Shown in pieces: positions 14,160-63,798 of a stretch of 64,000 nucleotides of DNA. A program made the position numbers and the translations under genes. The stretch is from assembly GCA_023458595.1 (NCBI GenBank), contig JAEWYT010000121.1, forward strand, positions 2,983 to 66,982, written 5' to 3'. The DNA is from Pseudomonadota bacterium (GTDB taxonomy: Bacteria; Pseudomonadota; Alphaproteobacteria; Rhizobiales; Tepidamorphaceae). The notes under the pieces were generated by a model. That model saw only the letters and a list, made by a program, of their open reading frames with translations, did no database searches and was not told the origin of the DNA. How positions within the stretch are numbered: the stretch's first letter is position 1; the number at the start of each line of letters is the position of its first letter.

Positions 14160-15401
<1,242 letters not shown>

Positions 15402-44280: not shown

Positions 44281-44622
44281 ATGCACGAACTGTCGCTTTG
44301 CGAGAGTATCGTCGACGTCCTGGAGCGCCGGGCGGTCGACCACAGCTATTCGCGTGTGAGGACGGTGTGGCTCGAGATCGGCCCGCTCGCGGGCGTCGAG
44401 CTGGAGGCGCTGCGCTTCTCCTTCGACGTGGCGACGCGCGGCACGCTCGCGGAGAACGCGGCGCTGAGGATCATCGAGACGAAGGGCGAGGCCTGGTGCA
44501 TGGCCTGCTCGAAGACCGTGCCGGTGAAGGAGCGTTTCGCCGCCTGCCCCGAATGCGGCAGCTACCGGCTGCAGCTCACCGGCGGCGAGGAACTGAGGAT
44601 CAAGGAACTGGAGGTGGACTGA
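44281..44622 (+). CDS. hypA: Hydrogenase nickel-insertion protein HypA
   Basis: 113 aa with the [12 protein letters not shown]-terminus and a Zn site (CMAC...CPECG). Confidence 0.92.
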
Positions 44623-45527: not shown

Positions 45528-45537
45528 GAGAGTAGAC

Positions 45538-45786
45538 ATGTGTCTCGCCCTGCCGGCCCTGGTCGTGTCGATCGACGAAGCCAGCGAGATGGCGACGGTC
45601 GCGCTCGCGGGCGTCCGCAAGGCGATTTCCATCGCCCTGCTCGACGACGTCGCGATCGGCGACTACGTGCTCGTCCACGTCGGCTACGCGCTGCACAAGA
45701 TCAGCCCGGAGGAGGCCGACCGCACGCTGAAGCTGATGGAAGAGGCCGGGATCATCGAGGAAGAGCTCGAGGAGATCCGGTCATGA
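45538..45786 (+). CDS. hypC: Hydrogenase assembly chaperone HypC
   Basis: 82 aa with the invariant MCLALP N-terminus. Confidence 0.9.
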   Translation: MCLALPALVVSIDEASEMATVALAGVRKAISIALLDDVAIGDYVLVHVGYALHKISPEEADRTLKLMEEAGIIEEELEEIRS

Positions 45787-46934: not shown

Positions 46935-47980
46935 ACGCCATGCACAACCGCTTCCCCGGCAGGCTCGATATGCGCGATGGCACGATCGACATGACGCACG
47001 GCAGCGGCGGCCGGGCGATGGCGCAGCTCATCGACGAACTGTTCGTCGCCCATTTCGACAACGACCTGTTGCGCCGGGCGAACGACCAGGCCGCCTTCGA
47101 CGTGCCCGCCGGCCGGCTCGTCATGTCGACGGACGGCCACGTCATCTCGCCGCTGTTCTTCCCCGGCGGCGACATCGGCTCGCTCGCCGTGCACGGCACG
47201 ATCAACGACGTGGCGATGGCCGGCGCGAGGCCGCTCTATCTCTCCGCCGGCTTCATTCTGGAGGAGGGCTTCCCGCTCGCCGATCTGGAACGGATCGTCA
47301 TCAGCATGGCCGAGGCCTCGAGGGCGGCGGGTGTTCCCGTCGTCACCGGCGACACCAAGGTCGTCGAGAAGGGCAAGGGCGACGGCGTCTTCATCACCAC
47401 GACCGGCGTCGGCATCGTCCCGGTGGGCGTCGACATCTCCGGCGACCGCGCCGAGCAGGGCCACGCGATCCTGTTGAGCGGCTCGATCGGCGACCATGGC
47501 GTCGCCGTCTTGTCGAAGCGCGAGAACCTCGATTTCGAGACCGAGATCCTGTCGGACTCCGCTGCCCTGCACGGCCTCGTCGCGGCGATGGTGGAGGCCG
47601 TGCCTGAGATCCGCTGCCTGCGCGATCCGACGCGCGGTGGGCTGGCGGCGACGCTGAACGAGCTCGCCCGCCAGTCCGGCGTCGGCATGCGGATCAGGGA
47701 ATCGGCGATTCCCCTGAAGCCCGACGTGGCGGCGGCCTGCGAGTTGCTCGGTCTCGACCCGCTCTATGTGGCCAACGAGGGCAAGCTGATCGCGATCTGC
47801 GAGGCGGCCGATGCCGGGACGCTGCTTTCCGCCATGCGCGCCCATCCGCTCGGCGCGGAGGCTGCCATCGTCGGCGAGGTCGTCGCCGACCCGCATTCCT
47901 TCGTGCAGATGGAGACGCTGCTCGGCGGCAGCCGCATCGTCGACTGGCTCGCCGGGGAGCAGCTGCCCCGGATCTGCTGA
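46931..47980 (+). CDS. hypE: Hydrogenase maturation carbamoyl dehydratase HypE
   Basis: 349 aa with a PurM-like fold and the characteristic C-terminal PRIC-stop. ATGA overlap with hypD. Confidence 0.92.
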   Translation: MNAMHNRFPGRLDMRDGTIDMTHGSGGRAMAQLIDELFVAHFDNDLLRRANDQAAFDVPAGRLVMSTDGHVISPLFFPGGDIGSLAVHGTINDVAMAGARPLYLSAGFILEEGFPLADLERIVISMAEASRAAGVPVVTGDTKVVEKGKGDGVFITTTGVGIVPVGVDISGDRAEQGHAILLSGSIGDHGVAVLSKRENLDFETEILSDSAALHGLVAAMVEAVPEIRCLRDPTRGGLAATLNELARQSGVGMRIRESAIPLKPDVAAACELLGLDPLYVANEGKLIAICEAADAGTLLSAMRAHPLGAEAAIVGEVVADPHSFVQMETLLGGSRIVDWLAGEQLPRIC

Positions 47981-48175
47981 TGCGCGTCCTTTTCCGCACC
48001 CACGGTTTCAGCGCGCCCGCCTCGTCGCCCGGTCTCGAAGCCCGTCTCGCCGGGAAGCGCGACCGCCGCGCGACCGACGAACGGGTGAAGCCGCTTCGCG
48101 AATGCCGGGCCGGGATGCAGGAAGGCTGCGTCATGAGCGGGCCTGCGACCGTCCTCGCCGAGCGTTGAGGCGTCG

Positions 48176-50506: not shown

Positions 50507-50847
50507 ACGTCCCGATTGTGCCGCCGGCCCGAGAAGAGACGGCGACGAGGCGTTCTCGCACTCCCGTAGCGATCGTCTCCGCGTCCGGCCCCGCCGCCGA
50601 GGATCGGCCCTTCGTCATCGGCCTGAGGGCCCGCACGTAGCGGGTGCGCGGACCTCTGCCGCGCGGGACATCCGAGGAACTTCGGGACGATCCGTTCGAA
50701 TACAAACAGTCGGCAAAAAAACAGACCGTTTGATATACGCCCGTACTCGCGAACGTGCGGACGCCCGCGGTATGGTCCACCATTCAACGACAGGCCCCCG
50801 ACCGCTCGCAGCGGATCGGAAGGCCGAGAATGGGAGGAACGGACGTT

Positions 50848-52101
50848 ATGAAATCCAGCTTGTTCTGTGCGGTTGCAGCCACCGCTCTTCTGATGGCCGC
50901 CGGCACCAACGCCGCCGAACCGCTCAAGATCGGCGTGACGGCGACGCTAGAAGGTACGTACACCGTGCTCGGGGAGGACGGCATGCGCGGCTTCGAGGTC
51001 GCGCTGCGGGAGCACAACAAGATGGCCGGTGGCCGGCCGCTCGAGATCATCGTCGCCTCGACGGACGCGAGCCCCGACTCCGCGGTGCGCGCGGTCCGCA
51101 AGCTCGTCGAGCAGGACAAGGTCGACGTCGTCGTCTCGCCGCTGTCCGGCGACGAGGGCATCGCGGTCAAGAACTACGCCAAGACGCAGCCGCAGATGAC
51201 CTTCATCAACGGCGGGTCGGGCGCGCAGGAGACGACCTTCGTCGATCCGTCGGAAAACTTCTTCCGCTTCAACATGGACGGCGCCCAGTGGTCCGCCGGC
51301 CTTGGCAACTATATCTACAACAACAAGGGCTGGAAGAAGATTGCCACGATCGGCGAGGACTACTCCTTCGTCTACACGCAGGTATTCGGCCTCGCGGTCG
51401 AGTACTGCAGCGCCGGCGGCGAGATTTCGGAGCGGTTCTGGGTCCCGCTCGGCACCAAGGACTTCTCGTCGATCATCGCCGCGCTGCCTGACGACGTCGA
51501 CGCCATCTATCTCGGCCTTGGCGGCGGCGACGCCGTCAACTTCCTGAACCAGTACGCCCAGGCCGGCGGCGACGCCCACTTCCTCGGCGGCTCGATCATG
51601 GTCGACCAGACCGTGCTGTCGTCGAAGGGCAAGGCCAAGGAACTCCTGCTCGGCACCCCGGCCGCGTCCGGCCAGGCCGACACCTGGGACAATCCGAAGT
51701 GGCAGGCCTTCGTGAAGGCCTATCAGGACGCGTTCCCGCCGGAGAAGCGCTTCGCCGGCCCCTCGCTGCTCGCCACCAACTACTATGACGCTGCGACCGC
51801 CGTGTTCAACGCGCTCGACCAGGTCAACGGCGACCTGAGCGACGGTCAGGCGAAGTTCCGCGACGCACTGAAGAACATGGTTCTCGACGCGCCGAACGGC
51901 GAGATCAAGCTCGACGAGAACCGCCAGGCGATCGGCACCAACTTCGTCACCGAAGTGATCGCCGACAAGGACGGCAACCTGGTCTCCAAGGTCGTGGACG
52001 TGGTCCCGAACGTGAACCAGACGCTCGGTATCCCGCTGGACGAGTTCAAGAAAATCGGCCTGCCGAGCCGCGACGTTCCGGAGTGCAAGAAGTACAAGTA
52101 A
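50848..52101 (+). CDS. Liv-type (branched-chain amino acid family) ABC transporter substrate-binding protein
   Basis: 417 aa with a GGGAGGA RBS, a signal peptide (ATALLMAAGTNAAEP) and a type I PBP pattern (LKIGVTATLEGTYTVLGEDG). Confidence 0.85.
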   Translation: MKSSLFCAVAATALLMAAGTNAAEPLKIGVTATLEGTYTVLGEDGMRGFEVALREHNKMAGGRPLEIIVASTDASPDSAVRAVRKLVEQDKVDVVVSPLSGDEGIAVKNYAKTQPQMTFINGGSGAQETTFVDPSENFFRFNMDGAQWSAGLGNYIYNNKGWKKIATIGEDYSFVYTQVFGLAVEYCSAGGEISERFWVPLGTKDFSSIIAALPDDVDAIYLGLGGGDAVNFLNQYAQAGGDAHFLGGSIMVDQTVLSSKGKAKELLLGTPAASGQADTWDNPKWQAFVKAYQDAFPPEKRFAGPSLLATNYYDAATAVFNALDQVNGDLSDGQAKFRDALKNMVLDAPNGEIKLDENRQAIGTNFVTEVIADKDGNLVSKVVDVVPNVNQTLGIPLDEFKKIGLPSRDVPECKKYK

Positions 52102-52291
52102 GGCACTCGCCGGAATGGACGTGGCGGCGTGCCGCGAGGCCGCCGCAGGAGTGACGAGGGTCCCGTGCCGTGGGGGCGGCGCGGGGCTTTCGCGTGCCTT
52201 GCCCGCCACAACGTATACGAAATCCGTAGCCAGCCACCAAAAGCTGGACCATACTCAAAAGAAAAAGCCGAAAATCCAAAGGGAGGAGCCG

Positions 52292-53122
52292 TTGAGCACA
52301 GCAATTTCTGTGTACCACGGCCACTTCGGCCGTGCGACGCTTTACGCGCTTGATCGCGCGATGATCAAGCACGCCCACCGGGAAGGTCACCTGACCTTCT
52401 GGGTCCAGGGCGGGCTGTCGACCATAGCGATCAAGGACGTCCCCTGCGTGCTATCACCCGAGACGGGGGCGGCGGTGAATTCGTGGGAGCTTCACTCCTA
52501 CGATCCGCACGAATGTGAGGTCCGCCAGCACTGTCTGGTCCTCTACATCAGGCCGGAGTGGTTCTTGAACTTCAGCCGGTCCACGTGCGGCGCGTTGAAA
52601 TTCGGCCGCCCCGAGGTCGAGATGACACCGCTGATCGTCCGGCTGGTCGCCCATGTCGTCCACCTGCTGACCGACCCGCACGGCAGCGATCTCCTGGACG
52701 GCTATCTCTACGAGCTGACGTCGGCCTGTTTCGAGCAGACCCACACCTGGGTGCCGGGCGCCCAGGAGGTCGGAGACGAGAGCCGCATCAACGACTTCCG
52801 CGTCCGCAAGTCGATCCGGCTGATGACCGAGAATGTCGGCCAGATCATGGGTCTCGACGACGTCGCCAGCGAGTCGGGCCTGTCGCGCCCGCACTTCTTC
52901 AAGCTGTTCCGCAGCCAGACCGGCGTCACGCCCAAGCTGTTCTGGAACACGATCCGCATGGAGCGGGCGCTGGCCGAGCTGGCGGAGTCGCCGAAGTCGA
53001 TCACCGACATAAGCCTCGACCTCGGTTTTTCCTCGCAGTCGAGCTTCACGCGGTTCTTCGTGCTGAACACGGGGCTCGCGCCGACCGAGTACCGACGGGT
53101 CGCGCACGTGTTGCACTCCTGA
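52292..53122 (+). CDS. AraC family transcriptional regulator
   Basis: About 276 aa with a TTG start preceded by GGGAGGAG. The C-terminal double HTH is present (ESGLSRPHFFKLFRSQTGVTPKLFW ... DLGFSSQSSFTRFFVLNTGLAPTEYRR). Confidence 0.8.
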   Translation: MSTAISVYHGHFGRATLYALDRAMIKHAHREGHLTFWVQGGLSTIAIKDVPCVLSPETGAAVNSWELHSYDPHECEVRQHCLVLYIRPEWFLNFSRSTCGALKFGRPEVEMTPLIVRLVAHVVHLLTDPHGSDLLDGYLYELTSACFEQTHTWVPGAQEVGDESRINDFRVRKSIRLMTENVGQIMGLDDVASESGLSRPHFFKLFRSQTGVTPKLFWNTIRMERALAELAESPKSITDISLDLGFSSQSSFTRFFVLNTGLAPTEYRRVAHVLHS

Positions 53123-53390
53123 CGCTGCCCGCGTCCGGACGGTCTTTCGAAAAGAGACTGTTTGGCATGCGCCGATCGCGGGCGGTGTCTAAGTTTGAAC
53201 AACGGGGGAGGGCCCCTGCGGGAAAACCGCCGCAAGGAGACTGGCGTGCGAGTGCGCCAGCCGACGAAGAACGGCGAACGGGGAAAGGAGACGCGGTCAT
53301 GGGCGCGCGTACGGCGATAGCTTCCGGCACACGTCGGTCGGGCGCCGGTCGCGCGCACGCACGGCCGGCCCGTTGTTTCCGGAGAACTGG

Positions 53391-54401
53391 ATGAGCCGGT
53401 TCTTCGAGCGCCACCCGATCTGGTCGATCGTCATCGTGCTCGCCGCCGCCCTGGTGCTGTGGCTGATCATCGCGCCTTGGCCCGAATGGCTCGAGACACT
53501 GATCGATCGCAAGAAGGTCTTCGTCAACGCGGTGTTCAACGGGGTGACGCTCGGCGCGCTCTATTTCCTCGTCGCCTCGGGCTTCACCCTGATCTTCGGC
53601 CTGATGCGCAACGTCAACCTGGCGCATGGCTCTCTCTATCTGTTCGGCGGCTATCTCGGCTACACGGTCACGGCGGCGACCGGCAGCTGGTATCTCGCCT
53701 TCGTCGTCGCCTTCGCCGCCATGGCCCTCTTCGGCATCGTTCTGCAGGTCGGCGTGTTCCGCCGCATGGAAGGCGAGGAGCTGCGCCAGACGCTGGTGAC
53801 GATCGGCATCTCGATCGTCCTCGCCGACGTGATGCTTTGGATCTGGGGCGGCGACTTCTACCAGGTCGAGCCGCCCGGCTGGCTGTTCGGCGCGGTCGAT
53901 CTGCCGATCATCACCGCGGTGAAGAGCGACGGCACGGCGGTCTACATGAAGTATCCGGCGGTGCGAATATTCATCCTGATCGCCTCGATCATCGTCGGGG
54001 TGCTGATGTGGCTCGCGCTCAACCGCACCAGGATCGGCATGATGATCCGCGCCGGCGTCGACGACCGCGACATGCTGTCGGCGACTGGCGTGCCCATTCA
54101 GCTCGTGTTCGTCGCGGTCTTCGCGGTCGGCGCGGGGCTTGCCGGCGTCGCCGGCGTCGTCGGCGGTACGTTCCAGGCTCTGGCGCCCGGCGTCGACACG
54201 CGATTCCTGCTCGCTTCCCTCGTCGTCGTCATCGTCGGCGGGATGGGTTCGATTCCAGGCGCCGCGATCGGCGCCGTTCTCATCGGCCTCTCCGAGCAGC
54301 TCGGCTCGGTCTACGTCCCGACCTACGCCGTCGTGCTGACGTTTCTTATCATGGTGATCGTGCTGGCTTTCCGCCCGCAGGGACTCCTTGGCAGGAGGTG
54401 A
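53391..54401 (+). CDS. LivH-type ABC transporter permease
   Basis: About 336-aa polytopic ORF with LivH motifs (GVTLGALYFLVASGFTLIFGLMRNVNLAHG). An alternative ATG lies at 53373. Confidence 0.88.
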   Translation: MSRFFERHPIWSIVIVLAAALVLWLIIAPWPEWLETLIDRKKVFVNAVFNGVTLGALYFLVASGFTLIFGLMRNVNLAHGSLYLFGGYLGYTVTAATGSWYLAFVVAFAAMALFGIVLQVGVFRRMEGEELRQTLVTIGISIVLADVMLWIWGGDFYQVEPPGWLFGAVDLPIITAVKSDGTAVYMKYPAVRIFILIASIIVGVLMWLALNRTRIGMMIRAGVDDRDMLSATGVPIQLVFVAVFAVGAGLAGVAGVVGGTFQALAPGVDTRFLLASLVVVIVGGMGSIPGAAIGAVLIGLSEQLGSVYVPTYAVVLTFLIMVIVLAFRPQGLLGRR

Positions 54402-54404
54402 GCG

Positions 54405-55508
54405 ATGGCGGTGCTCGATCAGGACCCGGCAGGCAGTCGAACGGGCGTCCGCGCGTCTGATGGCGCCTCGCTCCCCGTCTGGCTGCGCGGCATCGACCCG
54501 GGCGTCTGGCTCGTCGGCCTGTTTCTCCTGTTCGTGCCGGCATTCACCAACGACTTCATCCAGTTCCAGATCTTCGGCTGGAGTTTCGTGCTCGGCATGA
54601 TCGCGCTGAGCCTGATGTTCCTTGCGGGCTACGGCGGCATGGTGTCGCTCGTGCAGATGACCGTCGCCTGCGTCGCCGGCTACATGACCGCGATCTTCGG
54701 CCATAGCGCCTTCGAGTCGATCAGCTTCTTCTGGCCGCTGTGGATCGCGGTGCCGATCGCGATCCTCGTCGCCGTCGTCTTCGGCACCCTCACCGGCGCG
54801 CTCGCCGTGCGCACCACCGGCATCTACACGATCATGATCACGCTCGCGATCGCGGCGGCCTTCTACTATTTCGGCGAGCAGAACTACTCGATCCTGAACG
54901 GCCATCAGGGGTTCAACAGCGTGGCGGCGCCGATCGTGTTCGGCATCGATTTCCACGACTCGACGCCCTTCTACTACCTCTCGCTCTGCCTGGCCGCGCT
55001 CAGCTATTTCGTGGTGCTCTATATCTCGCGCTCGCCCTTCGGCCTGGCCCTCCAGGGTATCCGCGACAATCCGCGCCGCATGGCGGCAATCGGCTTCAAC
55101 GTCACGGCCCACCGCATCGCGGCATACGCGTTCGCCGCTTTCATCGCCGCGATCGCCGGTATCCTGCTCACCTGGCAGAACGGTCAGATCTCGCCGTTCA
55201 CGGCCGGCATCGGCCCGGTCATCGACATCCTGGTGATCGCCGTCATCGGCGGCCTCGGCCATCCGATAGGCCCGTTCATCGGCGCGCTCATCTACGTGGT
55301 GCTGCGCACGTTCGCGATCGACATTCTCCAGAACGTCGGCCTGGATCCGTCCCGCTTCAACCTGCTCGTCGGCTTCGGTTTCCTGGTGATCGTGTTCTGG
55401 TCGCCGGACGGCGTGCTCGGCCTGTGGACGCGCTGGCGCGACCGGTCGCGCGACCGCGACCCGCTGACCGGTGCCCAGAACACGGGCGACCGGCGGGAGG
55501 GCCCGTGA
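54405..55508 (+). CDS. LivM-type ABC transporter permease
   Basis: 367-aa polytopic ORF (LAGYGGMVSLVQMTV), starting 3 nt after the LivH-like stop. Confidence 0.88.
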   Translation: MAVLDQDPAGSRTGVRASDGASLPVWLRGIDPGVWLVGLFLLFVPAFTNDFIQFQIFGWSFVLGMIALSLMFLAGYGGMVSLVQMTVACVAGYMTAIFGHSAFESISFFWPLWIAVPIAILVAVVFGTLTGALAVRTTGIYTIMITLAIAAAFYYFGEQNYSILNGHQGFNSVAAPIVFGIDFHDSTPFYYLSLCLAALSYFVVLYISRSPFGLALQGIRDNPRRMAAIGFNVTAHRIAAYAFAAFIAAIAGILLTWQNGQISPFTAGIGPVIDILVIAVIGGLGHPIGPFIGALIYVVLRTFAIDILQNVGLDPSRFNLLVGFGFLVIVFWSPDGVLGLWTRWRDRSRDRDPLTGAQNTGDRREGP

Positions 55509-56296
55509 TGGCGGAAAGCGTCGCCCAGCGCCTCTCCACGGCCGGAGCCGCCAACGCGCTGGAGCTGCGCGGCGTCTCGCGCATGTTCGGCGCGCTCGCG
55601 GCGATGACCGACGTCACGATGACCGTGCGCCCCGGCGAGCGCCGCGCCGTGCTCGGCTCGAACGGCGCCGGCAAGACGACGCTCTTCAACTGCATCACCG
55701 GCGACTTCCTGCCGACGTCCGGCACGATCCGGCTGTTCGGCGAGGACGTGACGGCCTTTCCCGCCTACGAGCGCATCCGCCGGGGGCTCAGGCGCACCTA
55801 CCAGATATCGCTTCTGTTCGGCGGCCTGAGCGTCCTCGACAACATCTATCTCGCCTGCCGGGGCGTCTCGCGCGGACGGTTCTCGCTGCTGAGGCCACGC
55901 CGCAACGACGCGTTGGTCAACGCGGCGGAGGAACTCCTCGACGCCGTCCACCTGACCTCGGCGCGCGACACGCTGGTCTCGCAGCTGTCCTACGGCCAGC
56001 AGCGCCAGCTCGAGATCGCGCTCGCGCTCGCCGGCGCGCCGCGCTTCATCCTGTTCGATGAACCCGCCGCCGGCCTGTCGCCGACCGAGCGGCGTGAACT
56101 GATCGCCATCCTCTCGGGCCTGCCGGAGCACATCGGCTTCATCATCATCGAGCACGACATGGACGTGGCGCTGCGCGTCGCCGAGAGCGTGACGATGATG
56201 CACAACGGGCGCATCTTCAAGGAAGGCACGCCGGCGGAAATCGAGGACGATCCGGAAGTGCAGGCGCTCTATCTCGGAGGCGGCCACCATGGCTGA
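55508..56296 (+). CDS. LivG-type ABC transporter ATP-binding protein
   Basis: 262 aa with Walker A GSNGAGKTT, signature LSYGQQRQLEIA and Walker B ILFDEP. The ATG overlaps the upstream TGA. Confidence 0.9.
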   Translation: MAESVAQRLSTAGAANALELRGVSRMFGALAAMTDVTMTVRPGERRAVLGSNGAGKTTLFNCITGDFLPTSGTIRLFGEDVTAFPAYERIRRGLRRTYQISLLFGGLSVLDNIYLACRGVSRGRFSLLRPRRNDALVNAAEELLDAVHLTSARDTLVSQLSYGQQRQLEIALALAGAPRFILFDEPAAGLSPTERRELIAILSGLPEHIGFIIIEHDMDVALRVAESVTMMHNGRIFKEGTPAEIEDDPEVQALYLGGGHHG

Positions 56297-58496
56297 GCGC
56301 GAGCGCACCGGCACGCCCGTCCTCGATATCCGGGGCCTCAACGTCTACTACGGGGCCTCCCACGCGCTGCAGGGCGTCGACCTGCAGCTCAAGGGCGGGG
56401 CGCTCGCCGTCGTCGGCCGCAACGGCATGGGCAAGACGACGCTCTGCAAGGCCATCATGGGGCTCGTGCCGATCGCCTCGGGCTCGATCCGCTTCGCCGG
56501 CCAGGAGCTCGCCGGCCGGTCGCCCGCCGATATCGCCCGCCTCGGCATCGGCTACGTGCCGCAAGGGCGACGACTGTGGCGCTCGCTGACGGTCGACGAA
56601 CATCTGCGCATGGTCTCGACCGGCCATGCCGGCTCCTGGACGATCGAACGCATCTACTCGACGTTCCCGAGGCTCGCCGAGCGCCGCACCAACGGCGGCG
56701 GCCAGCTTTCGGGCGGCGAGCAGCAAATGCTGGCGATCGCCCGCGCGCTGCTTCTCAACCCGCAGCTCCTCGTCATGGACGAGCCGACCGAGGGTCTGGC
56801 GCCCGTCATCGTCGCCCAGGTCGAGGAACTGCTCATGAACCTCGCCGAGACGGGTGACGTCAACGTCCTCCTGATCGAGCAGAACATCGGCGTCGCCACC
56901 GAAGTCGCGCCGCAGGTCGCGATCATGGTCAACGGCCGTATCAACCGGCTCATCGAGTCCGGCCAGCTCGCCGGCGACCGCGACATGCAGCAGCGCCTCC
57001 TCGGCGTCGGCCGCCATGCCCACGACGAGACGCCGGATACGGAAACGCCCGCGAGGGCCGCGGCGGACCGGCGGGCGGCATCGGAGCACGGGCCGGTCCG
57101 TATCTACATGTCCAACCCCAAGCCGCCGACGCGCTGGTCGCAGCCGGTGTCCGTGCGCCAGATCGAGCAGTCGGCGCGTATCGTCTCCGCGCCGCGCATC
57201 CCCGGCGCGGAGGCCGGCATGCCGCACGCCGAGCTGCGGCCGCTCGCCTCGCCCGGCGAGAACATCGTCCTCGTCGCCGGTACGCTCGACACCAAGGGCG
57301 CGGAGCTGCGCTTCATCCGCGACGTCATCCGCGAGCACGGTCTTCCCGTTCGCATGGTCGATCTTTCGACGTCGGGCCGCCATTCCGGCGCGGAGATCCC
57401 GGCGCATCAGATCGCCGCCTTCCATCCGCGTGGCGCCAGCGGCGTGTTCACCAACGATCGCGGCGAGTCGGTTGCCGGCATGACGCTCGCCTTCGAGCGC
57501 TGGGTGGCGCGGCAGAGCGGCATCGCCGGCATCATCTCGGCCGGCGGCTCGGGGGGTACGGCGATCGTCGCGCCCGCCATGCGCGCGCTGCCCATAGGCA
57601 CGCCCAAGCTGATCGTCTCCACCGTCGCCTCGGGCGACGTGCGCCGCTACGTCGGCCCCTCGGACATCACCATGATGTACTCGGTCGCCGATGTTCAGGG
57701 CCTGAACTCGATCACCCGCCTTGTGCTGCGCAACGCCGCCGCGGCGATGGCCGGAATGGTCCGCGACCGGCGCGAGCATGCGCGCAGGGAGTCCGGAGCC
57801 GTCAAGCCCGCCGTCGGCCTCACCATGTTCGGCGTGACGACACCCTGTGTGCGTCAGGTCGCCGACGCGCTGGAGGGGGACTACGACTGCCTCGTCTTCC
57901 ACGCGACCGGCATCGGCGGCCAGTCGATGGAGAAGCTCGTCGACGGCGGCCAGATCCGCGCGGTGGTCGACATCACCACGACCGAGATCTGCGATATGGT
58001 CGCAGGCGGCATCTTCCCGGCGACCGCCGATCGCTTCGGCGCCATCATCCGCACCCGGATCCCGTACATCGGCTCCTGCGGCGCCCTCGACATGGTCAAT
58101 TTCGGTGCGCCCGACACGGTGCCGGAGAAATACCGCCACCGCACCTTCTATCACCACAACCCCCAGATCACGCTGATGCGCACGACGCCGGAGGAGAACG
58201 CGGAGATGGGCCGCTGGATCGGCGCGCGGCTCAACGAGATGGAAGGTCCGGTCCGCTTCTTCCTGCCCGAGGGCGGCGTCTCGCAGCTCGATCAGCCGGG
58301 CCAGCCCTTCCACGATCCCGCAGCCGACCGCGCGCTCTTCGCCGCGCTCGAGCAGACCGTGCGTCAGACCGCGACCCGGCAGCTGATACGGCTGCCCGGC
58401 AACATCAACGACCCCGCCTTTTCCGCAGAGCTCGTCGCCGCCTTCCGGGCGCTCCACGGCTCGACGCGGCCGAAACCGAGACGGGCGAGAAGGTGA
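56289..58496 (+). CDS. Fusion protein: LivF-type ABC ATPase (N-terminal ~240 aa) plus Tm-1-like UPF0261 ATP-binding domain (C-terminal ~410 aa)
   Basis: 735-aa continuous frame. The N-terminal part has [24 protein letters not shown] and LLVMDEPT. After a linker of ~90 aa, the C-terminal part has UPF0261 features ([60 protein letters not shown]). Confidence 0.8.
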
Positions 58497-58504
58497 CCGC
58501 GCGA

Positions 58505-59341
58505 ATGCCGATCGAACGAAAGAACATCCTCGAGAAGTTCCGCGCCATGATCGCGAGCGGCGAGCCGATCATCGGCGGCGGCGCGGGGACGGGCCTTTCC
58601 GCGAAGTGCGAGGAGGCCGGCGGCATCGATCTGATCGTGATCTACAATTCCGGGCGTTACCGGATGGCCGGTCGAGGTTCGCTGGCCGGACTTCTGGCCT
58701 ACGGCGACGCCAACCAGATCGTTGTCGAGATGGCCTCCGAGGTACTGCCCGTCGTGAAGCGCACGCCGGTACTCGCCGGCGTCAACGGCACCGACCCGTT
58801 CCGACTGATGGACGTCTTCCTCGACGAACTCAAGCGCATCGGCTTCTCGGGGGTGCAGAACTTCCCGACGGTCGGCCTCTTCGACGGCACGTTCCGCTCA
58901 AATCTGGAAGAGACCGGCATGTCCTATGGCCTCGAGGTCGACATGATCGGCAAGGCGCGCGCCAAGAACATGCTGACGACGCCTTACGTCTTCAACGAGG
59001 CTGACGCGGCGGCGATGGCGAAGGCCGGCGCCGACATCGTCGTCTGCCACCTGGGCCTCACCACCGGCGGCTCGATCGGCGCGGAGACCGCGCTCAAGCT
59101 CAAGGACTGCCCGGCCAAGGTCGACGCGTGGGCGGAGGCCGCCCTCAAGGTCAACAAGGATGTGATCGTGCTCGTCCACGGCGGCCCCGTCGCCATGCCG
59201 GACGACGCGCGCTTCATCCTCAAGGAAACGCGCAACTGTCACGGCTTCTACGGCGCCTCCTCGATGGAGCGCCTGCCGACGGAGGTCGCGCTGACGGAAC
59301 AAACGCGCCGGTTCAAGGAAATCGGCCGCAAGCATGGGTAA
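58505..59341 (+). CDS. Phosphoenolpyruvate hydrolase-like TIM-barrel protein (partner domain of Tm-1-type proteins)
   Basis: 278 aa with [33 protein letters not shown] and [12 protein letters not shown] motifs. It lies directly downstream of the UPF0261-containing gene. Confidence 0.75.
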
Positions 59342-59391
59342 CGGCAGGGGGTAGTCATGACGCTGCCGCTACCGGTTCGGGAGGAAAGACC

Positions 59392-62300
59392 ATGACTGGA
59401 CAGATCATTGGCCAGATCATCCTTTGGCTGATCGTCGCCGTAGTCGCGATCGCCATCATCTACTGGGTGATGAACAGGCTCTACCGCCGCTCCACCAAGG
59501 AGGTCGCGTTCGTCAGGACCGGTTTCCTCGGCGAGAAGGTCGTCATCGACGGCGGCGCGTTCGTCTGGCCCATCATCCACGACATCACGCCGGTGAACAT
59601 GAACACCGTGCCGCTGGAGGTCATCCGCGCCAGGGAGGAGGCGTTGATCACCCGCGACCGTATGCGCGTCGACGTCGAATCCGAGTTCTACATCCGGGTG
59701 AAGCCGACGAAGGAGGCCGTCTCCCGTGCCGCCGCCACCCTCGGTCGCCGCACCCTCGACACCGAGTACTTGAACAACCTCCTGTCGTCGAAGTTCGAGT
59801 CGGCCCTGCGCGCGGTCGCCGCCGACATGACCATGGCCGAGATGCACGAGCAGCGCGGCGCCTATGTCGCCCGCGTCAAGGAAGCCGCCCTCGAGGACAT
59901 GGCGACCAACGGTCTCGAGCTCGAGTCGGTGGCGATCATGGACATCGACCAGACGAGCCTCGAGTTCTTCAATCCTTCCAACCGCTTCGACGCCGAAGGT
60001 CTGACGGCCCTCATCAAGGACATCGAGGACCGCCGCAAGCTGCGCAACGACATCGAGCAGGACTCGATGATCCTGATCCGCGCGCGCAATCTCGAGGCCG
60101 AGAAGCAGGCCCTCGCGATCGAGCGGGAGAGCGAGGAAGCCCGGCTCGAGCAGGAACGCGACGTCGAGTTCCGCCGCGCCCAGCAGCGCGCCGAACTGGC
60201 TCGTGAACGTGCCGAGCGCGAGCGCGAGGCCGAGGAGGCGCAGATCGGCGCCCGCGAGGTCGTCGAGCGCGCCCGCATCGCCACCGACCAGTCCGTCACC
60301 TCGACGCGCATTCAGTCGGAGCGCGAGATCCGCCAGCGCGAGATCGAGCGCCAGCAGGCGATCGACTCCGCCGAGATCAAGTCGCGCGAGGAGATCGAGA
60401 AGGCCCGCATCCTGCAGGAGAGGGCGGTGCAGGAAGCCCGTATCGTCAACGAGCAGGAGACGCAGTCGCGCGACATCGCCCGCCGGCGCGCTATCGAGGA
60501 GGCCGAGATCGCCGCCCGCGAGGCGACCGAGCGTGCCCGTATCGAGCAGGAACGCGCCGTCCAGGAAGCCCGTATCGTCAACGAGCAGGAGACGCAGGCC
60601 CGCGAGATCATCCGCCGCCGCACGATCGAGGAGGCGGAGATCACTGCCCGGGAGGCGATCGAGCGCGCCCGCATCGAACAGGAACGGGCGATCCAGGAAT
60701 CCCGCATCGCCAACGAGCAGGAGACGCAGGCCCGCGAGATCACCCGCCGGCGCGTGCTCGAGGAGGCCGAAATCGCCGCTCGCGAATCGACCGAGCGGGC
60801 CCGCATCGAGCAGCAGCGGATCATCGAGGAAGCCCGTATCGCACAGGAACTGTCGGTCACCGACGCGCGTATCGCGAGCGAGGAGGAGACGCGCCGGCGC
60901 GAGATCGAGCGCAACCGGGCGATCGAGGCCGCCGAGATCGCCGCGCGCGAGGCGACCGAGAAGCTCAGGATCGCCGAGGCCGCCGGTGTCAACGAGGAGC
61001 GCATCTCGACAGACCGGCACATCCGCGAGTTGGAGATCGAGCGCCAGCGGGTCCTGGAAGAGGCCGAGATCGCCGCGACCCAGGCGACCGAAGCCGCCCG
61101 TATCGCCCGCGAGAAGCGGATCTCCGCCGAGCGTATCGCCTACGAGCAGGACGTGCGCGAACGCGAGATCGCCCGCGCCCGCGCGGTGGACACGGCAGAG
61201 ATCGCCGCGCGCCAGACTGTCGAGGCACAGCGGATCGAGGTTGACGCGAAGATCGATCAGGAGCGCATCGCCAAGCGGGAGGCGACCGTGCTCGCCGAGA
61301 CGGCGTCGGTGCTGAAGACCGAGGCCGCCGGCATCGAGCGGCAGAAGACGATAGAGATCGAGCGTATCGCGGCCGGCACCGAGACGCGCACCCGCGAGAT
61401 CGAGCGCAACGAGGTCATCGAGAGCCAGGAAGTCGCCTCCCGGCGCACCGTCGACCAGGTCCGCATCGAGAAGGAGCTCGAGACCTCGCGCGACAAGGTC
61501 CGGCGCGACGAGGAACTGCGCAATCTGGAGATCGCCCGCAACAAGGTGCTGGACGAGGCGGCGATCGCCGCCGAGCAGGCCGTGGAGGCGGCGCGCATCT
61601 CGCAGAAGAAGTCGCTGGACGCCGAGCGCATCGCCGCCGAGCAGGACGTGCGGCAGCGCGAGATCGCCCGCGAGGAAGCCGTCGAGACGAGCGACCTGCT
61701 GCGCCGCGACGCCGTCGAGCGCCAGCGCATCGGCGTCGAACTGGGCCTCGAGGAGGAGCGCATCACCTCGCAGAAGCAGCGCGAGGTTCTCGACATCAAT
61801 CGCAAGAGGGAGGTCGAGGAAGCCGACGAGAGCCGTATCATCGAGATCGCGGCCATCAAGGGCCAGCGCGCGGAAGCCGACGCAAGGCTGCGGCGCACCG
61901 AGATCGCGGCCAAGCGCGACGTCGAGACGACCGACGTACAGCGCGAGCAGGCGCTCGACGCGGCGAAGCTCGAGCGCAGGCGGTCGATCGAGCAGCTCGA
62001 GATCGCCCGCGTGCAGGCCCTGCGCGAAGCCGAGATCGCCTCGCACGAGGACATCGAGCGCGCCCGCATCGCCTCCGAGCGCGGCCTCGACGACGCCCGC
62101 ATCGGCCACGAGACCGCGCGCCGTCGCCTCGAGGTGCAGCGCGAGCGCGACGTCGAGACCGCGAAGATGGAGAAGGCGATCGCGCTCTACCAGAAATCTC
62201 TCGAGGAATCCGCCGCGCAGATCGAGGCCGATCTTGCCCGCGCACGCGCCGCAGAAGCCGAGGAGCAGGTCAAGACGACCCGCGAGACCGAGGAGGCCAA

Positions 62301-62889
62301 CCGCCGCAAGACGATCGATGTGCTCATGGCGCAGAAGGCCGCCGAGCAGGAGAAGATCGCGGCCGCCGCCGAAAAGGTTCGCCGTGCGGTCGAGGCCGAG
62401 GCCCAGCGTCTCATCAACGAGGCGGAGAACATCCTCACCGACGGCGCCCGCGCCTCGCTGTTCAAGCGCAAGCTGCTCGACCGCGTGGAGGGTATCGTCG
62501 CCGCCTCCGTCAAGCCCCTGGAGAAGATCAACGACATCCGCATCGTGCAGATGGACGGTCTCGGCCAGAACGGCGGCGGGATCGGCGGCAGCCCGACCGA
62601 CGAGGTGATCAACTCGGCGCTGCGCTACCGCGTGCAGGCGCCGCTGATCGACAGCCTGCTGTCGGAGATGGGTATCGAGGGCGCGAACCTGGCGAAACAG
62701 GCCGGCCTGATCCGAGAGGCCTCGGACATGCAGCGCATCGCCAAGGAGGCCGGACGGCCATCGGGGAGCGGCGGTGGCGGTGAAGGCGGCGGCTCGGGCG
62801 GCGGATCCGGCGGCGGGGGCAGCGGCGGATCCGGCGGCGGCTCGAAGTCCGGCGGTTCCCGGTCACGCCGCGGCCAGAAGGGCGAATGA
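59392..62889 (+). CDS. Giant flotillin/SPFH (band-7) family membrane-scaffold protein with an expanded hendecad-based coiled-coil repeat region and a Gly/Ser tail
   Basis: 1165 aa. I prefer the ATG at 59392 with a GGGAGGAAAG RBS. It has an N-terminal TM helix (IIGQIILWLIVAVVAIAIIYWV) and an SPFH domain (VAFVRTGFLGEKVVIDGGAFVWPIIHDITPVNMNTVPLEV). A very long Glu/Arg/Ala/Ile-rich repeat region follows, then a flotillin-type C-terminal region (LLDRVEGIVAASVKPLEKINDIRIV). Confidence 0.8.
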   Translation: MTGQIIGQIILWLIVAVVAIAIIYWVMNRLYRRSTKEVAFVRTGFLGEKVVIDGGAFVWPIIHDITPVNMNTVPLEVIRAREEALITRDRMRVDVESEFYIRVKPTKEAVSRAAATLGRRTLDTEYLNNLLSSKFESALRAVAADMTMAEMHEQRGAYVARVKEAALEDMATNGLELESVAIMDIDQTSLEFFNPSNRFDAEGLTALIKDIEDRRKLRNDIEQDSMILIRARNLEAEKQALAIERESEEARLEQERDVEFRRAQQRAELARERAEREREAEEAQIGAREVVERARIATDQSVTSTRIQSEREIRQREIERQQAIDSAEIKSREEIEKARILQERAVQEARIVNEQETQSRDIARRRAIEEAEIAAREATERARIEQERAVQEARIVNEQETQAREIIRRRTIEEAEITAREAIERARIEQERAIQESRIANEQETQAREITRRRVLEEAEIAARESTERARIEQQRIIEEARIAQELSVTDARIASEEETRRREIERNRAIEAAEIAAREATEKLRIAEAAGVNEERISTDRHIRELEIERQRVLEEAEIAATQATEAARIAREKRISAERIAYEQDVREREIARARAVDTAEIAARQTVEAQRIEVDAKIDQERIAKREATVLAETASVLKTEAAGIERQKTIEIERIAAGTETRTREIERNEVIESQEVASRRTVDQVRIEKELETSRDKVRRDEELRNLEIARNKVLDEAAIAAEQAVEAARISQKKSLDAERIAAEQDVRQREIAREEAVETSDLLRRDAVERQRIGVELGLEEERITSQKQREVLDINRKREVEEADESRIIEIAAIKGQRAEADARLRRTEIAAKRDVETTDVQREQALDAAKLERRRSIEQLEIARVQALREAEIASHEDIERARIASERGLDDARIGHETARRRLEVQRERDVETAKMEKAIALYQKSLEESAAQIEADLARARAAEAEEQVKTTRETEEANRRKTIDVLMAQKAAEQEKIAAAAEKVRRAVEAEAQRLINEAENILTDGARASLFKRKLLDRVEGIVAASVKPLEKINDIRIVQMDGLGQNGGGIGGSPTDEVINSALRYRVQAPLIDSLLSEMGIEGANLAKQAGLIREASDMQRIAKEAGRPSGSGGGGEGGGSGGGSGGGGSGGSGGGSKSGGSRSRRGQKGE
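60307..62170 (+). repeat. In-frame tandem repeat array inside the flotillin gene: 132-nt (44-codon) units, about 14 copies of decaying similarity
   Basis: Successive units start at 60307, 60439, 60571 and 60703, an exact 132-nt spacing (CGTATCGTCAACGAGCAGGAGACGCAG...). Each unit splits into four 11-residue sub-repeats. One extra 33-nt (11-aa) insertion lies at 60835-60867. Confidence 0.8.
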
Positions 62890-62892
62890 GCG

Positions 62893-63330
62893 ATGGCCCG
62901 CGTCTTCATATCGAGCGTGATCTCCGCCCCCGTCGTCCGTGTCTGGGAGCGCGTGCGTGACTTCAACGCCCTGCCGCGCTGGCATCCGGCGATCCGCGAA
63001 AGCCGCATCGAGAACGGCGAGCCGTCCGACAAGGTCGGCTGCGTGCGCGACTTCCGCCTGCAGAACGGGGACCGGATCCGGGAGAGGCTGCTCGGTCTCT
63101 CCGACTACGACTACTTCTGCACGTACTCGATCCTCGAAAGCCCGATGCCGCTCACGAACTACGTGGCGACGCTGCGGCTTACTCCCGTCACCGACGGCGA
63201 CCGGACCTTCGCGGAATGGTCGGCCGAGTTCGACTGCGCGCCGGAGGCGGCGAACGACCTCGTCGGCGGCATCGGCATGAATGTCTTTCAGGCCGGCTTC
63301 GACAGCCTCAAGAGGCATTTCGGAGGCTGA
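62893..63330 (+). CDS. SRPBCC (START/Bet v1/polyketide cyclase-like) family protein, copy A
   Basis: 145 aa (VISAPVVRVWERVRDFNALPRWHPAI...PSDKVGCVRDF...LTPVTDGDRTFAEW). Starts 3 nt after the flotillin stop. Confidence 0.75.
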   Translation: MARVFISSVISAPVVRVWERVRDFNALPRWHPAIRESRIENGEPSDKVGCVRDFRLQNGDRIRERLLGLSDYDYFCTYSILESPMPLTNYVATLRLTPVTDGDRTFAEWSAEFDCAPEAANDLVGGIGMNVFQAGFDSLKRHFGG

Positions 63331-63336
63331 CGGGCG

Positions 63337-63798
63337 ATGGTGAAGGTGGTCAAGAGCACGATCATGGACGCCCCCGTCGAGGCGGTATGGGACGTGCTGC
63401 GCGATTTCAACGGCCACGACCAGTGGCATCCGGCTGTTGCCGACAGCGCCATCGAGCGGGGCCTGCCGTCCGACAAGGTCGGCTGCGTGCGCCGGTTCCA
63501 TCTCGCCGACGGCTCGGAGCTGCGCGAGCAGTTGCTGACGCTCTCCGACGCGGACATGGCCTTCTCCTACTGCCTGCTCGACACGCCGGTGCCGCTCCTG
63601 AACTACGTCGCCCACGTTCGCCTCATTCCCGTGACCGACGGCGACCGCACCTTCTGGCACTGGGAGTCGCGCTTCGACACGCCCGAGGGCCGCGAGGAGG
63701 AGCTCGCCGGCATGGTCGGCGAACAGATCTACGAGGGCGGCTTCGCCGCCGTTCGCGAGTTCATGGGGCTCGGCCCCGCCGATACGGGAGAAACCTGA
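63337..63798 (+). CDS. SRPBCC family protein, copy B (tandem paralogue)
   Basis: 153 aa, roughly half identical to copy A by eye. The two copies share an identical 27-nt block, CCGTCCGACAAGGTCGGCTGCGTGCGC (63023-63049 and 63464-63490). Confidence 0.75.
   Translation: MVKVVKSTIMDAPVEAVWDVLRDFNGHDQWHPAVADSAIERGLPSDKVGCVRRFHLADGSELREQLLTLSDADMAFSYCLLDTPVPLLNYVAHVRLIPVTDGDRTFWHWESRFDTPEGREEELAGMVGEQIYEGGFAAVREFMGLGPADTGET

Follow-up and report, generated by a model that had tools for sequence, protein, structure and literature searches.

A flotillin of the SPFH2 group, in its 'giant' form of 1165 aa, is encoded in the window, that is, the whole stretch of 64,000 nucleotides analysed here. In the reading preferred here, which is given a probability of about 60%, this giant SPFH2 flotillin grew by the addition of 44-aa modules, and its repeat is a code for the side-by-side packing of helices in the wall of a cage. 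The identity of the protein, the anatomy of its repeat, the quantisation of its length, the variation of its copy number and the synteny of its gene are observed directly.

Domain layout and family membership

The gene and the features of its product are arranged as follows (all on the + strand).
59379..59385, +: Shine-Dalgarno-like GGGAGGA, 6 nt 5' of the ATG at 59392
59392..62889, +: giant flotillin gene, an ORF of 1165 codons plus stop (1165 aa; Pfam)
59395..59490, +: N-terminal membrane anchor, aa 2-33 (sequence; helix aa 3-33 in the AF2 model)
59500..59952, +: SPFH/Band_7 domain (PF01145), aa 37-187 (Pfam E 1.4e-18; AF2 pLDDT 88-96; Foldseek)
59983..62427, +: helical region of ~815 residues, aa 198-1012, putative cage-wall (CC1) helix (DSSP; Pro/Gly count)
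60121..61803, +: hendecad block 1, aa 244-804, ~50 hendecads in a single unbroken phase, 44-residue a-b-c-d units
60385..60912, +: youngest 44-aa units, aa 332-507 (DNA repeat; the closest relative has one unit fewer here)
60781..60879, +: b-c-c hendecads with a single extra 11-residue insertion (the DNA unit is longer by 33 nt)
61804..61857, +: phase discontinuity, aa 805-822, hydrophobic register shifted by +3 residues
61858..62181, +: hendecad block 2, shifted phase, aa 823-930 (~8-10 hendecads)
62329..62676, +: Flot domain (PF15975), aa 980-1095 (Pfam E 2.2e-31, profile positions 2-124 of 124)
62752..62886, +: disordered, lineage-specific Gly/Ser-rich tail with a basic end, aa 1121-1165 (sequence, orthologue alignment, AF2)

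The N-terminus has the same residues as that of the closest orthologue and contains a hydrophobic helix (aa 3-33) followed by the basic cluster RLYRRSTK, an arrangement that indicates membrane attachment at the sequence level. Because this basic cluster follows the anchor, the positive-inside rule predicts that most of the giant flotillin is cytoplasmic. The long region after the SPFH domain includes 0 Pro and 10 Gly in its 815 residues, and DSSP assigns helices to aa 198-298, 303-660 and 667-1012 of the AF2 monomer model, in which the helix has moderate confidence (pLDDT 50-75) and is broken at aa 299-302 and 661-666. The Flot domain comprises the end of the wall helix, the cap helix, the connecting loop and the C-terminal helices (helices modelled at aa 1017-1046 and 1068-1092).

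When the family profile was compared with PDB sequences, human flotillin-1 was the best match (9bq2_B, E 3e-9), and a Foldseek search with the MSA-based AF2 model placed the flotillin chains 9l3g_A (9.9e-12) and 9bq2_B (1.1e-11) at the top, followed by prohibitin, erlin, HflK/C, vault, QmcA and stomatin, all of which form closed cage or ring assemblies. Human flotillin-1/flotillin-2 (9bq2, 9l3g), the best match by both profile and fold, share with the window protein the domain order of SPFH, long CC1 helix, cap and C-terminal domain. The human complex is a hetero-oligomer that is attached to the membrane through lipidation and hydrophobic SPFH1 residues, whereas the window protein has an N-terminal transmembrane helix and, unlike flotillin-1/-2, no flotillin paralogue partner detectable in its operon. 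The bacterial flotillins YqiK (E. coli) and FloT/YuaG (B. subtilis) have an N-terminal anchor, SPFH and Flot domains, as does the window protein; FloT/YuaG is about 509 aa long and YqiK 553 aa, compared with 1165 aa here, in agreement with an earlier note on this DNA that put the protein at about twice the usual bacterial length. The NCBIfam FloT equivalog NF058507 gave 36.8 bits against a cut-off of 700.

Proteins termed 'giant SPFH2' (SPFH2b), with a 'strongly expanded coiled-coil region' and 800-1000 aa, have been reported in Alpha- and Gammaproteobacteria by Hinderhofer 2009, in one descriptive sentence that gives neither repeat unit, periodicity, length rule nor operon (PMC2636767). The window protein has both the expanded coiled coil (~815 helical residues) and the length of at least 800 aa that mark this type, and at 1165 aa (relatives up to 1286) it exceeds the quoted range. 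New here are the quantisation of length modulo 11, the difference of one unit from the closest relative, the 11-residue signature of the human wall and the operon.

The hendecad array and its growth

The earlier note had ascribed the extra length to an expanded 44-residue (4 x 11) unit with hendecad rather than heptad periodicity, and the self-similarity of the protein bears out both points. Under BLOSUM62, aa 241-960 show peaks at multiples of 11 only (z against shuffles of 12.5 at lag 11, 11.7 at lag 22 and 19.4 at lag 44), and no heptad signal was found in this region (lag 7, z -0.4). Four hendecad types, a-b-c-d, hold their order through about 12 units, and this order is also kept across the family. 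The periodic region, previously estimated at ~620 aa, is longer, spanning about 690 aa (aa 244-930) in two blocks separated by the +3 shift, which occurs once in the class to which the window protein belongs; in Roseibium the unbroken phase reaches ~61 hendecads.

The residue code of the repeat is strict. Position 9 is Ile in 44 of the 49 in-register hendecads and position 4 is V/I/T/L in 47 of them, while Ala leads at positions 7 and 10 and, jointly with Glu, at position 3. The wall as a whole consists of 20.6% E, 17.5% R, 16.1% A and 10.7% I (E+R 38%, I+V+L 20%), with opposite-charge pairs enriched at i/i+4 (z 6.2) and i/i+3 (z 4.2). The conserved hydrophobic positions 4 and 9 lie 5 and 6 residues apart and are separated by 131 degrees on an angular map, and the hydrophobic power spectrum reaches 725 at a period of 2.75 and 461 at 5.5 (5.49), compared with 79 at 3.6-3.67. 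Since power at 3.6-3.67 is minor, the helix has no single hydrophobic face, which argues against the surface-lying amphipathic helix suggested in the earlier note. The wall of human flotillin-1 (aa 169-353) resembles the window protein in that its top lag is 11 (z 6.5), its heptad lag is not significant and its hydrophobic harmonics (2.21, 2.72, 5.58) include values near 2.75 and 5.5; unlike the window protein, it lacks a super-period of 44 residues (z 1.0 at lag 44). YqiK is weakly periodic (z about 3.5 for both lag 11 and lag 22).

At the DNA level, a tandem repeat with a period of 132 bp, 3.5 copies and 81% identity is present at 60385-60841, and its units carry many synonymous differences. 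A single 11-aa insertion, also recognised earlier, was identified as an extra 'c' hendecad within aa 464-496, where two orthologues lack exactly 11 residues. Comparison of copy number among relatives, which the earlier note had recommended, revealed that the window protein differs from its closest relative, that of Microbaculum sp. FT89, by one clean in-phase 44-aa unit. Young units (at least 70% identity inside one protein) are present in some lineages and absent in others, and repeat units are still gained and lost between close relatives. The extra length arose by tandem duplication of a 132-bp (44-aa) module of four distinct hendecads, most likely through unequal recombination or slippage.

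Long orthologues (951-1286 aa) occur in all 80 of the best-matching species genomes, which belong to Alphaproteobacteria, and orthologues with similarly expanded walls were found on 77 metagenome contigs; the giant length is ordinary for the group of the window protein, not exceptional. The earlier note had regarded common and already characterised homologues of similar length as evidence against its proposal: such homologues are indeed common and were noted in 2009, but they are not characterised. The distance from the SPFH end to the cap falls into two classes modulo 11 in 274 of 276 orthologues, and ranges from 344 to 941 residues, or ~2.7-fold, depending on the anchor pair. Gapless anchor-to-anchor distances in 199 orthologues take 43 distinct values, with 197 of the 199 in two mod-11 classes, and all of the 77 metagenome genes obey the same rule. 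The spacing of 223 in YqiK falls into one of these two classes, the one that also holds the 685-aa short form (355 = 223 + 3 x 44).

The proposed cage wall and competing readings

Cryo-EM studies from 2022 to 2026 have shown SPFH proteins to form cages whose helical walls are one layer thick; among them, HflK/C faces the periplasm and encloses FtsH. HflK/C, prohibitin, erlin, stomatin/QmcA and the vault cap helix resemble the window protein in having an SPFH(-like) domain followed by a helix, which in these assemblies packs side by side in a closed barrel, whereas their wall helices are much shorter and no Flot domain is present. The human flotillin wall is a right-handed, single-layer barrel of 44 helices of 186-189 residues (PMC11260169, PMC13000311), and the solved wall bends at pi-helical and 3-10 motifs (PMC13000311).

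By homology, the giant flotillin probably forms a membrane-attached, homo-oligomeric cage, as in every solved SPFH complex, although both cage and cage size are extrapolated from relatives with wall helices of at most 189 residues. Each subunit would start with an N-terminal membrane anchor and the SPFH domain, continue as a single, greatly elongated helix (aa ~198-1012) and end in the cap helix and the C-terminal Flot region; the parallel, slightly right-handed long helices would form the wall in one layer. With Ile at 9, V/I/T at 4, Ala at 3, 7 and 10, and E/R at the rest, the hendecad code would create two packing seams ~130-150 degrees apart; each helix could therefore touch one neighbour on either side. 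E/R pairs at i/i+3 and i/i+4 would stabilise the helix and may bridge neighbouring helices. With length changing in steps of 11 residues only, the cap would keep its rotational register relative to the SPFH base, and the +3 shift near aa 805-822 would introduce one local bend. The ~815 helical residues would give a contour of ~120 nm, with a wall ~4 times that of human flotillin (186-189 residues), and the cage might be 60-100 nm high. In the manner of the ruler envisaged in the earlier note, the height of the assembly may plausibly be set by helix length. Several points count against this reading: the human-type truncated cone cannot simply be stretched four-fold, and therefore geometry or subunit number must differ; the 131-degree seam angle fits a small barrel, not a ring of 20-44 helices, unless Ala widens the seams; the AF2 monomer gives the helix moderate confidence and interrupts it twice; the strong i/i+4 charge pairing would also suit a single alpha-helix; and the NfeD gene that usually partners bacterial flotillins is missing from the neighbourhood.

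A long, uninterrupted helix with an 11-residue periodicity and no heptads would also suit a few-stranded stalk or ruler, in which two to four chains form a parallel right-handed, tetrabrachion-like coiled coil that holds the Flot domain ~100 nm off the membrane, and quantisation by 11 residues would keep such a coiled coil in register as well. However, the a/d/e/h core set contains no 5 + 6 spacing such as that of the conserved hydrophobic positions, the spectrum has little power at 3.67, the structural relatives that combine SPFH with a long helix are all closed rings or cages, the solved flotillin barrel wall shows the same harmonics, and the Flot C-terminal domain is a ring-closing cap in solved complexes (PMC11260169, PMC13000311); a stalk is accordingly considered unlikely. 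Tetrabrachion-type coiled coils share the 11-residue periodicity of the window protein but have a single a/d/e/h seam that it lacks, and assignment to this canonical hendecad type was rejected, as no dominant 3.67 period is present (79 vs 725/461). The non-canonical coiled coil of the earlier note, if taken as the canonical hendecad type, is a poor fit, given the same 5/6 spacing. Strong i/i+4 charge pairing is also a hallmark of stable single alpha-helices, and a monomeric, self-stable ER/K-type helix serving as a rigid linker from SPFH to the C-terminal domain would agree with the E+R content of 38% and with the enrichment of opposite charges at i/i+4 and i/i+3. ER/K helices are likewise E/R-rich with i/i+4 salt-bridge potential; the window protein adds two conserved hydrophobic stripes, and was not assigned to this class despite its charge pairing. 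Against such a linker, Ile is fixed in 44/49 and V/I/T/L in 47/49 hendecads, I+V+L amount to 20%, the order of the four hendecad types is kept across the family, and a free spacer has no reason to fall into two mod-11 classes in 274/276 orthologues, which together make it distinctly improbable.

A solenoid of helical hairpins, in which every 44-residue unit is a helix-turn-helix (HEAT- or Sel1-like) within a compact superhelix, draws on the fact that 44 residues lie within the size range of alpha-solenoid repeats and that the helix of the AF2 monomer doubles back on itself twice. It is very hard to reconcile with the lack of Pro and the small number of Gly (10) among the 815 residues, none recurring with the repeat, with DSSP helices of 358 and 346 residues, and with an 11-residue phase that runs unbroken over unit boundaries. 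Short reads can mis-assemble tandem repeats, and a second assembly of the strain was not found in the collections searched; an array inflated in this way, with a much shorter true gene, is nevertheless scarcely credible, as the DNA units match at only ~81% and differ at many synonymous sites, reading frame and hendecad phase are intact throughout, and one in-phase unit accounts exactly for the difference from the closest relative. The equally long genes (951-1286 aa) of the 80 best-matching species genomes come from independent assemblies, including 'complete genome' and 'chromosome' records, and make the assembly expansion raised in the earlier note very unlikely.

The orthologous group offers a natural length series for the idea, proposed by the authors of the flotillin structure, that cage size is set by helix length (PMC11260169): it consists of the same protein in the same operon, varying only in 11-residue steps. 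Such a series makes it testable whether cage height scales with wall length and whether it is the rotational register of cap and base that constrains length. In addition, the packing code (Ile, V/I/T and Ala stripes on an E/R background) may help to design helical barrels of defined length.

The conserved operon

The neighbours of the flotillin gene in the window are the following.
50755..52101, +: periplasmic solute-binding protein (Peripla_BP_6), with which the cluster begins in the window
52115..53122, +: AraC-type regulator
53373-54401 and 54405-55508, +: two branched-chain amino-acid-type ABC permeases (BPD_transp_2)
55508..56296, +: ABC ATPase, its start overlapping the previous stop (TGATG)
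56289..58496, +: fusion of an ABC ATPase with UPF0261 N- and C-terminal domains (kinase-like), in 80/80 related loci
58493..59341, +: PEP_hydrolase-like TIM-barrel protein (PF09370), directly 5' of the flotillin, in 77/80 related loci
62893-63330 and 63337-63798, +: two SRPBCC (Polyketide_cyc2) genes, the first 3 nt past the flotillin stop, in 78/80 related loci

The flotillin neighbours keep the same strand and the same spacing in 77-80 of 80 loci, the operon contains overlapping start and stop codons, and Mo-hydroxylase genes (CoxMSL-type) lie downstream in about 68/80 loci. For SPFH2b, NfeD2b partners were reported by Hinderhofer 2009, who also took yqiJ, which precedes yqiK, as an NfeD partner (PMC2636767). 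In contrast, no NfeD gene (YuaF/YqiJ type) was found among the neighbours of the window flotillin (ABC, UPF0261, PEP_hydrolase, SRPBCC), nor any NfeD family member among the called genes within 7 kb of the short and intermediate forms.

Synteny suggests that the flotillin is functionally tied to the importer and enzymes of its operon, and the conserved gene order provides concrete candidate clients, making it testable what a bacterial flotillin encloses. In a bolder and rather doubtful extension, the protein might build closed alpha-helical tubes ~60-100 nm tall, anchored in the membrane and reaching into the cytoplasm, which would constitute a new bacterial protein compartment enclosing the cytoplasmic face of the ABC importer together with kinase-like enzymes and the Mo-hydroxylase; evolution would have tuned its height, and hence its volume, through the gain or loss of 11-residue quanta, mostly in the form of 44-residue modules. 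The same neighbour genes accompany the short (684 aa) and intermediate (873 aa) forms.

Gene, modelled fold and repeat of the giant flotillin

The giant flotillin belongs to the flotillin family and consists of an N-terminal SPFH domain, a long helix referred to here as the wall, and a C-terminal cap. The gene and its domains are placed as follows:

59392-62889, + strand: giant flotillin ORF, from ATG 59392 to a stop codon at 62887-62889, 1165 residues
aa 37-187, + strand: Band_7/SPFH domain (Pfam)
aa 980-1095, + strand: Flotillin domain (Pfam)

The start codon at 59392 is sound, since a Shine-Dalgarno-like GGGAGGA lies 6 nt before it and residues 1-30 are identical between this protein and its closest orthologue. 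An antisense ORF of 953 aa (window 59248-62109, - strand) overlaps the gene, as do several further long ORFs; all of these are taken to be chance products of high-GC repetitive sequence rather than genes. A scan for promoters and terminators returned nothing useful. In the AF2 model, based on an MSA of 117 family sequences, the SPFH domain is confident (pLDDT 88-96) and is followed by long helices at aa 198-298, 303-660 and 667-1012. The cap helix covers 1017-1046; past a loop come two C-terminal helices and then a Gly/Ser tail that is disordered. This run was used instead of a single-sequence AF2 run without MSA, which had a mean pLDDT of 52, an unfolded SPFH domain and helix propensity only. 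Overall, the wall is an uninterrupted helix of ~815 residues (approximately aa 198-1012) with zero proline. The nearest solved proteins by family sequence profile are human flotillin-1 and flotillin-2; the profile was used for this PDB comparison, phmmer with the protein alone having placed Gly/Ser linker artefacts on top. The best Foldseek matches in the PDB are likewise flotillin complex chains (9l3g_A and 9bq2_B, E ~1e-11), followed in order by prohibitin, erlin, HflK/C, major vault protein, QmcA and stomatin. In all of these proteins, the helices after the SPFH domain stand side by side and form a closed barrel. The protein is not a FloT equivalog, the NCBIfam model scoring 36.8 bits against a cut-off of 700. 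The tail (aa 1121-1165, window 62752-62886) is Gly/Ser-rich and disordered with a basic end, SRSRRGQKGE, and lies behind spurious PDB matches to engineered GS linkers; it is common to the window and the related loci L001 and L003, while locus L002 has a different tail.

The earlier note had described about 620 aa of strictly periodic sequence built from 44-residue units of four hendecads (11-residue units). The repeat is real and its periodicity strict, but its extent requires correction: the periodic part covers ~690 residues and falls into two blocks (aa 244-804 and aa 823-930), between which the phase shifts by +3 residues (aa 805-822, window 61804-61857). Within aa 241-960, BLOSUM62 self-similarity is positive essentially only at multiples of 11 and reaches its maximum at 44 (z against shuffles: lag 11, 12.5; lag 22, 11.7; lag 44, 19.4), with no heptad signal (z -0.4). 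Across 49 consecutive hendecads, position 9 is Ile in 44 and position 4 is V/I/T/L in 47; Ala is most frequent at positions 7 and 10, position 3 is split between Ala and Glu, and the rest are mostly Glu, Arg or Gln. The composition of the repeat region is E 20.6%, R 17.5%, A 16.1% and I 10.7%. The four hendecad types keep a fixed a-b-c-d order through ~12 units, with one surplus 'c' hendecad inside aa 464-496. This is the clean 11-aa insertion previously noticed, and two orthologues are shorter by exactly 11 residues here. In the DNA, the repeat appears as a 132-bp unit in 3.5 copies of 81% identity (60385-60841), the copies being separated by many synonymous changes and the fourth carrying a 33-nt insert.

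Prevalence of giants and the 11-residue length rule

The length of the protein, which the earlier note considered exceptional, is less unusual than thought, as similar lengths are common, though they have remained without characterisation so far. A scan of one genome per species provided 466 relatives, the best 80 of which all encode 951-1286 aa, at least 14 of them exceeding 1165 aa. All of these 80 are from Alphaproteobacteria or unclassified MAGs, and the named groups among them include Microbaculum, Anderseniella, Roseibium/Labrenzia, Xanthobacteraceae, Rhizobiaceae, Hoeflea, Mesorhizobium, Geminicoccaceae and Rhodobacteraceae. Metagenomes contributed 77 further genes with a similarly expanded SPFH-to-cap spacing. 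An assembly artefact, with the repeat multiplied in the contig and not in the organism, is much less likely as the source of the length; several of the best 80 relatives come from records titled complete genome or chromosome. The window protein had first looked exceptional because a protein search showed mostly ~685-aa forms plus stepped longer ones; the genome scan then showed giants to be common. In that protein search most of the 120 matches listed were ~685 aa, and the window's own protein was absent from them. Three of its apparent giants are miscalled: P0002 and P0022 each run into neighbouring genes through a fused gene call, and the C-terminal part of P0003 looks frameshifted. P0046 (metagenome, 1181 aa) joins CHASE2, Band_7 and guanylate-cyclase domains; with 69% identity to the query's N-terminal part, it represents a domain fusion or else a contig chimera. 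A library of 1.84 billion representatives contains only two close ones of this group (897 and 693 aa), which are uninformative on length.

The only account of giant SPFH2 flotillins found in the literature searched is that of Hinderhofer et al. (2009, PMC2636767), who record flotillin-like proteins of 800-1000 aa with a 'strongly expanded coiled-coil region' in Alpha- and Gammaproteobacteria; no paper there joins flotillin with 'hendecad', and '11-residue' is absent from the SPFH papers found. This brief record and the genome scan together indicate that giant flotillins are known and common but uncharacterised, and the window protein is one of them. What is new is an explicit repeat grammar and a modulo-11 length rule across ~275 orthologues, together with the tie between the repeat and the solved flotillin barrel wall and a conserved operon.

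Length was measured as the distance from a conserved SPFH-end segment to a conserved cap-start segment by gapless local alignment, which replaced regular-expression anchors that had missed 39 sequences, with the same outcome. Wall length is quantised: 199 orthologues yielded 43 distinct anchor distances, yet 197 of the 199 fall in two classes modulo 11, one of the two exceptions being a fused gene call, and all 77 genes of the independent metagenome set fall in the same two classes. E. coli YqiK (553 aa) has a spacing of 223 (first anchor pair) and shares its class with the 685-aa short form (355 = 223 + 132). The two classes match two wall architectures, namely a single unbroken hendecad phase (e.g., short forms, or Roseibium with its ~61 hendecads) and, as in the window, a long block followed by 2-5 poorly periodic hendecads and a block shifted by +3 residues. 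A structural quantum of 44 was rejected because the spacings spread over several classes modulo 44; the quantum is therefore 11, while 44 residues is the usual mutational step.

Copy number has changed among close relatives. The closest, Microbaculum sp. FT89 (Tepidamorphaceae, Hyphomicrobiales), has a flotillin of 83% identity that differs from the window's by exactly one 44-residue unit; of five neighbouring genes compared, four are 91-92% identical. A second relative is shorter by 44 + 11 residues, and in a third the array is longer by two units. A metagenome search for closer relatives, in which population copy-number variation might be seen, found none above 73% identity. Units at least 70% identical within one protein occur in the window, L001, L002, L009, L031, L042 and P0006 and are absent in Roseibium, Xanthobacteraceae, Hoeflea and Anderseniella. 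This scatter of young units by lineage points to recurrent independent expansions that diverged later.

Packing code of the wall helix and the proposed barrel

Hydrophobicity along the wall follows a two-stripe hendecad code. A helix with one hydrophobic face is expected to show a period of 3.66. The observed spectrum instead peaks at 2.75 (power 725) and 5.49 (power 461) with only 79 at 3.66, which argues against the amphipathic helix lying on a surface that had been proposed earlier; the earlier interpretation was partly right. The conserved hydrophobic positions 4 and 9 are separated by 5 and 6 residues, a spacing that never occurs among the a/d/e/h core positions of a canonical hendecad coiled coil, so that this structure is disfavoured as well. 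Projected on an 11/3 helix, positions 4 and 9 are 131 degrees apart, with the Ala positions at 229-295 degrees. The helix thus carries two packing stripes that face roughly away from each other, which fits one neighbour per side. In human flotillin-1, the wall helix (aa 169-353, PDB alignment) also has 11 as its top lag (z 6.5; heptad z 1.4), with hydrophobic harmonics of 2.21, 2.72 and 5.58, and YqiK shows the 11-residue periodicity weakly, so that the hendecad is a family-wide trait of flotillin walls. Compared with other flotillin walls, the window protein's hendecad is unusually pure and extended. The 44-residue super-period, a feature particular to this orthologous group, already exists in the short forms, 99% of which have 44 as their top lag among 11-44.

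The human flotillin wall is a right-handed single-layer barrel of 44 helices of 186-189 residues each, in a cage 22 nm high (PMC11260169, PMC13000311). By analogy, the wall helices of the giant form would stand next to one another as the staves of a closed barrel with a slight right-handed twist, with an N-terminal helix anchor and SPFH ring as its base and the Flot-domain cap closing its top. The 11-residue rule may hold base and cap in rotational register, and the +3 phase shift would produce a local bend, or possibly a hoop; bends in the human wall occur at pi-helical and 3-10 motifs (PMC13000311). A contour length of ~120 nm would imply a cage several times taller than the human one. Under the positive-inside rule, basic residues after the membrane helix suggest that the bulk of the protein is cytoplasmic. 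A cone of the human flotillin type cannot simply be extended four-fold, and the 131-degree seam angle alone would suggest a small barrel.

Other forms of the wall appear much less likely than such a barrel. An ER/K spacer, in which each wall would stand as a single alpha-helix, draws on the strong i/i+4 charge pairing (z 6.2), which is also a trait of single alpha-helices; the two conserved hydrophobic stripes and the restriction of wall length to two classes modulo 11 speak against it. A stalk of few strands is likewise much less likely, the canonical hendecad core being disfavoured by the 5/6 spacing, and a solenoid folded from 44-residue repeats was rejected, the wall being free of proline and modelled in helices of up to 358 residues, with an 11-residue phase that runs on across the borders of the units.

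Operon context and candidate clients

The flotillin is the sixth gene in a tightly packed co-directional set:

50755-52101, + strand: solute-binding protein, first of the set
after the solute-binding protein, + strand: AraC regulator
after the AraC regulator, + strand: two branched-chain-type ABC permeases
55508-56296, + strand: ABC ATPase, its start overlapping the preceding stop
56289-58496, + strand: ABC ATPase fused to both UPF0261 domains (MarK kinase fold), 735 aa
58493-59341, + strand: PEP-hydrolase-like TIM barrel, preceding the flotillin
62893-63798, + strand: two SRPBCC genes, following the flotillin

The order and spacing of permease, ATPase::UPF0261, PEP-hydrolase-like, flotillin and SRPBCC pair are kept in 77-80 of 80 genomic loci, and the same neighbours lie beside the 684-aa and 873-aa forms, indicating that short, intermediate and giant variants are all orthologues in one operon. 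The NfeD partner typical of bacterial flotillin operons is absent among the neighbours at the window locus and at the short- and intermediate-form loci. The ATPase::UPF0261 fusion is kept in 80/80 related loci, always with the PEP-hydrolase-like gene next, an arrangement like that of a Tm-1-like protein split in two and coupled to a transporter. For UPF0261 one activity is known: MarK phosphorylates aromatic monomers in an ATP-dependent manner (PMC12624787).

In ~68 of the 80 loci, CoxM-like, CoxS-like and split CoxL-like molybdenum hydroxylase genes and a MoxR-type AAA ATPase lie downstream, past the SRPBCC genes (L047 10076-15029; L001 ~11084-15182); the window stops at 64000, short of this region. 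The 684-aa form differs in being followed by ADH, FAA-hydrolase, alpha/beta-hydrolase and amidohydrolase genes instead. Judged from synteny, the operon looks like an uptake-plus-catabolism unit in which the flotillin would be the sole scaffold-type component. With the ABC transporter, the UPF0261/PEP-hydrolase pair, the SRPBCC proteins and the Mo-hydroxylase as candidate clients, the group lends itself, as a natural experiment, to the question of what determines SPFH cage size.

Upstream in the window, a hydrogenase maturation cluster (44298-50506, + strand) comprises a cobW/HypB-type GTPase, HypD, a HypE-like protein (AIRS domains) and HypF. In a further MAG, the loci L083 and L084 carry the same 873-aa flotillin, SRPBCC pair and Mo-hydroxylase genes twice on the 4.7-Mb contig WLWT01000001.1 (GCA_012103455.1). 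The second copy is without the ABC, UPF0261 and PEP-hydrolase genes and adjoins transposase genes and a TPS/DUF637 toxin gene; the doubling may stem from duplication of a segment, from a mobile element or from faulty assembly.
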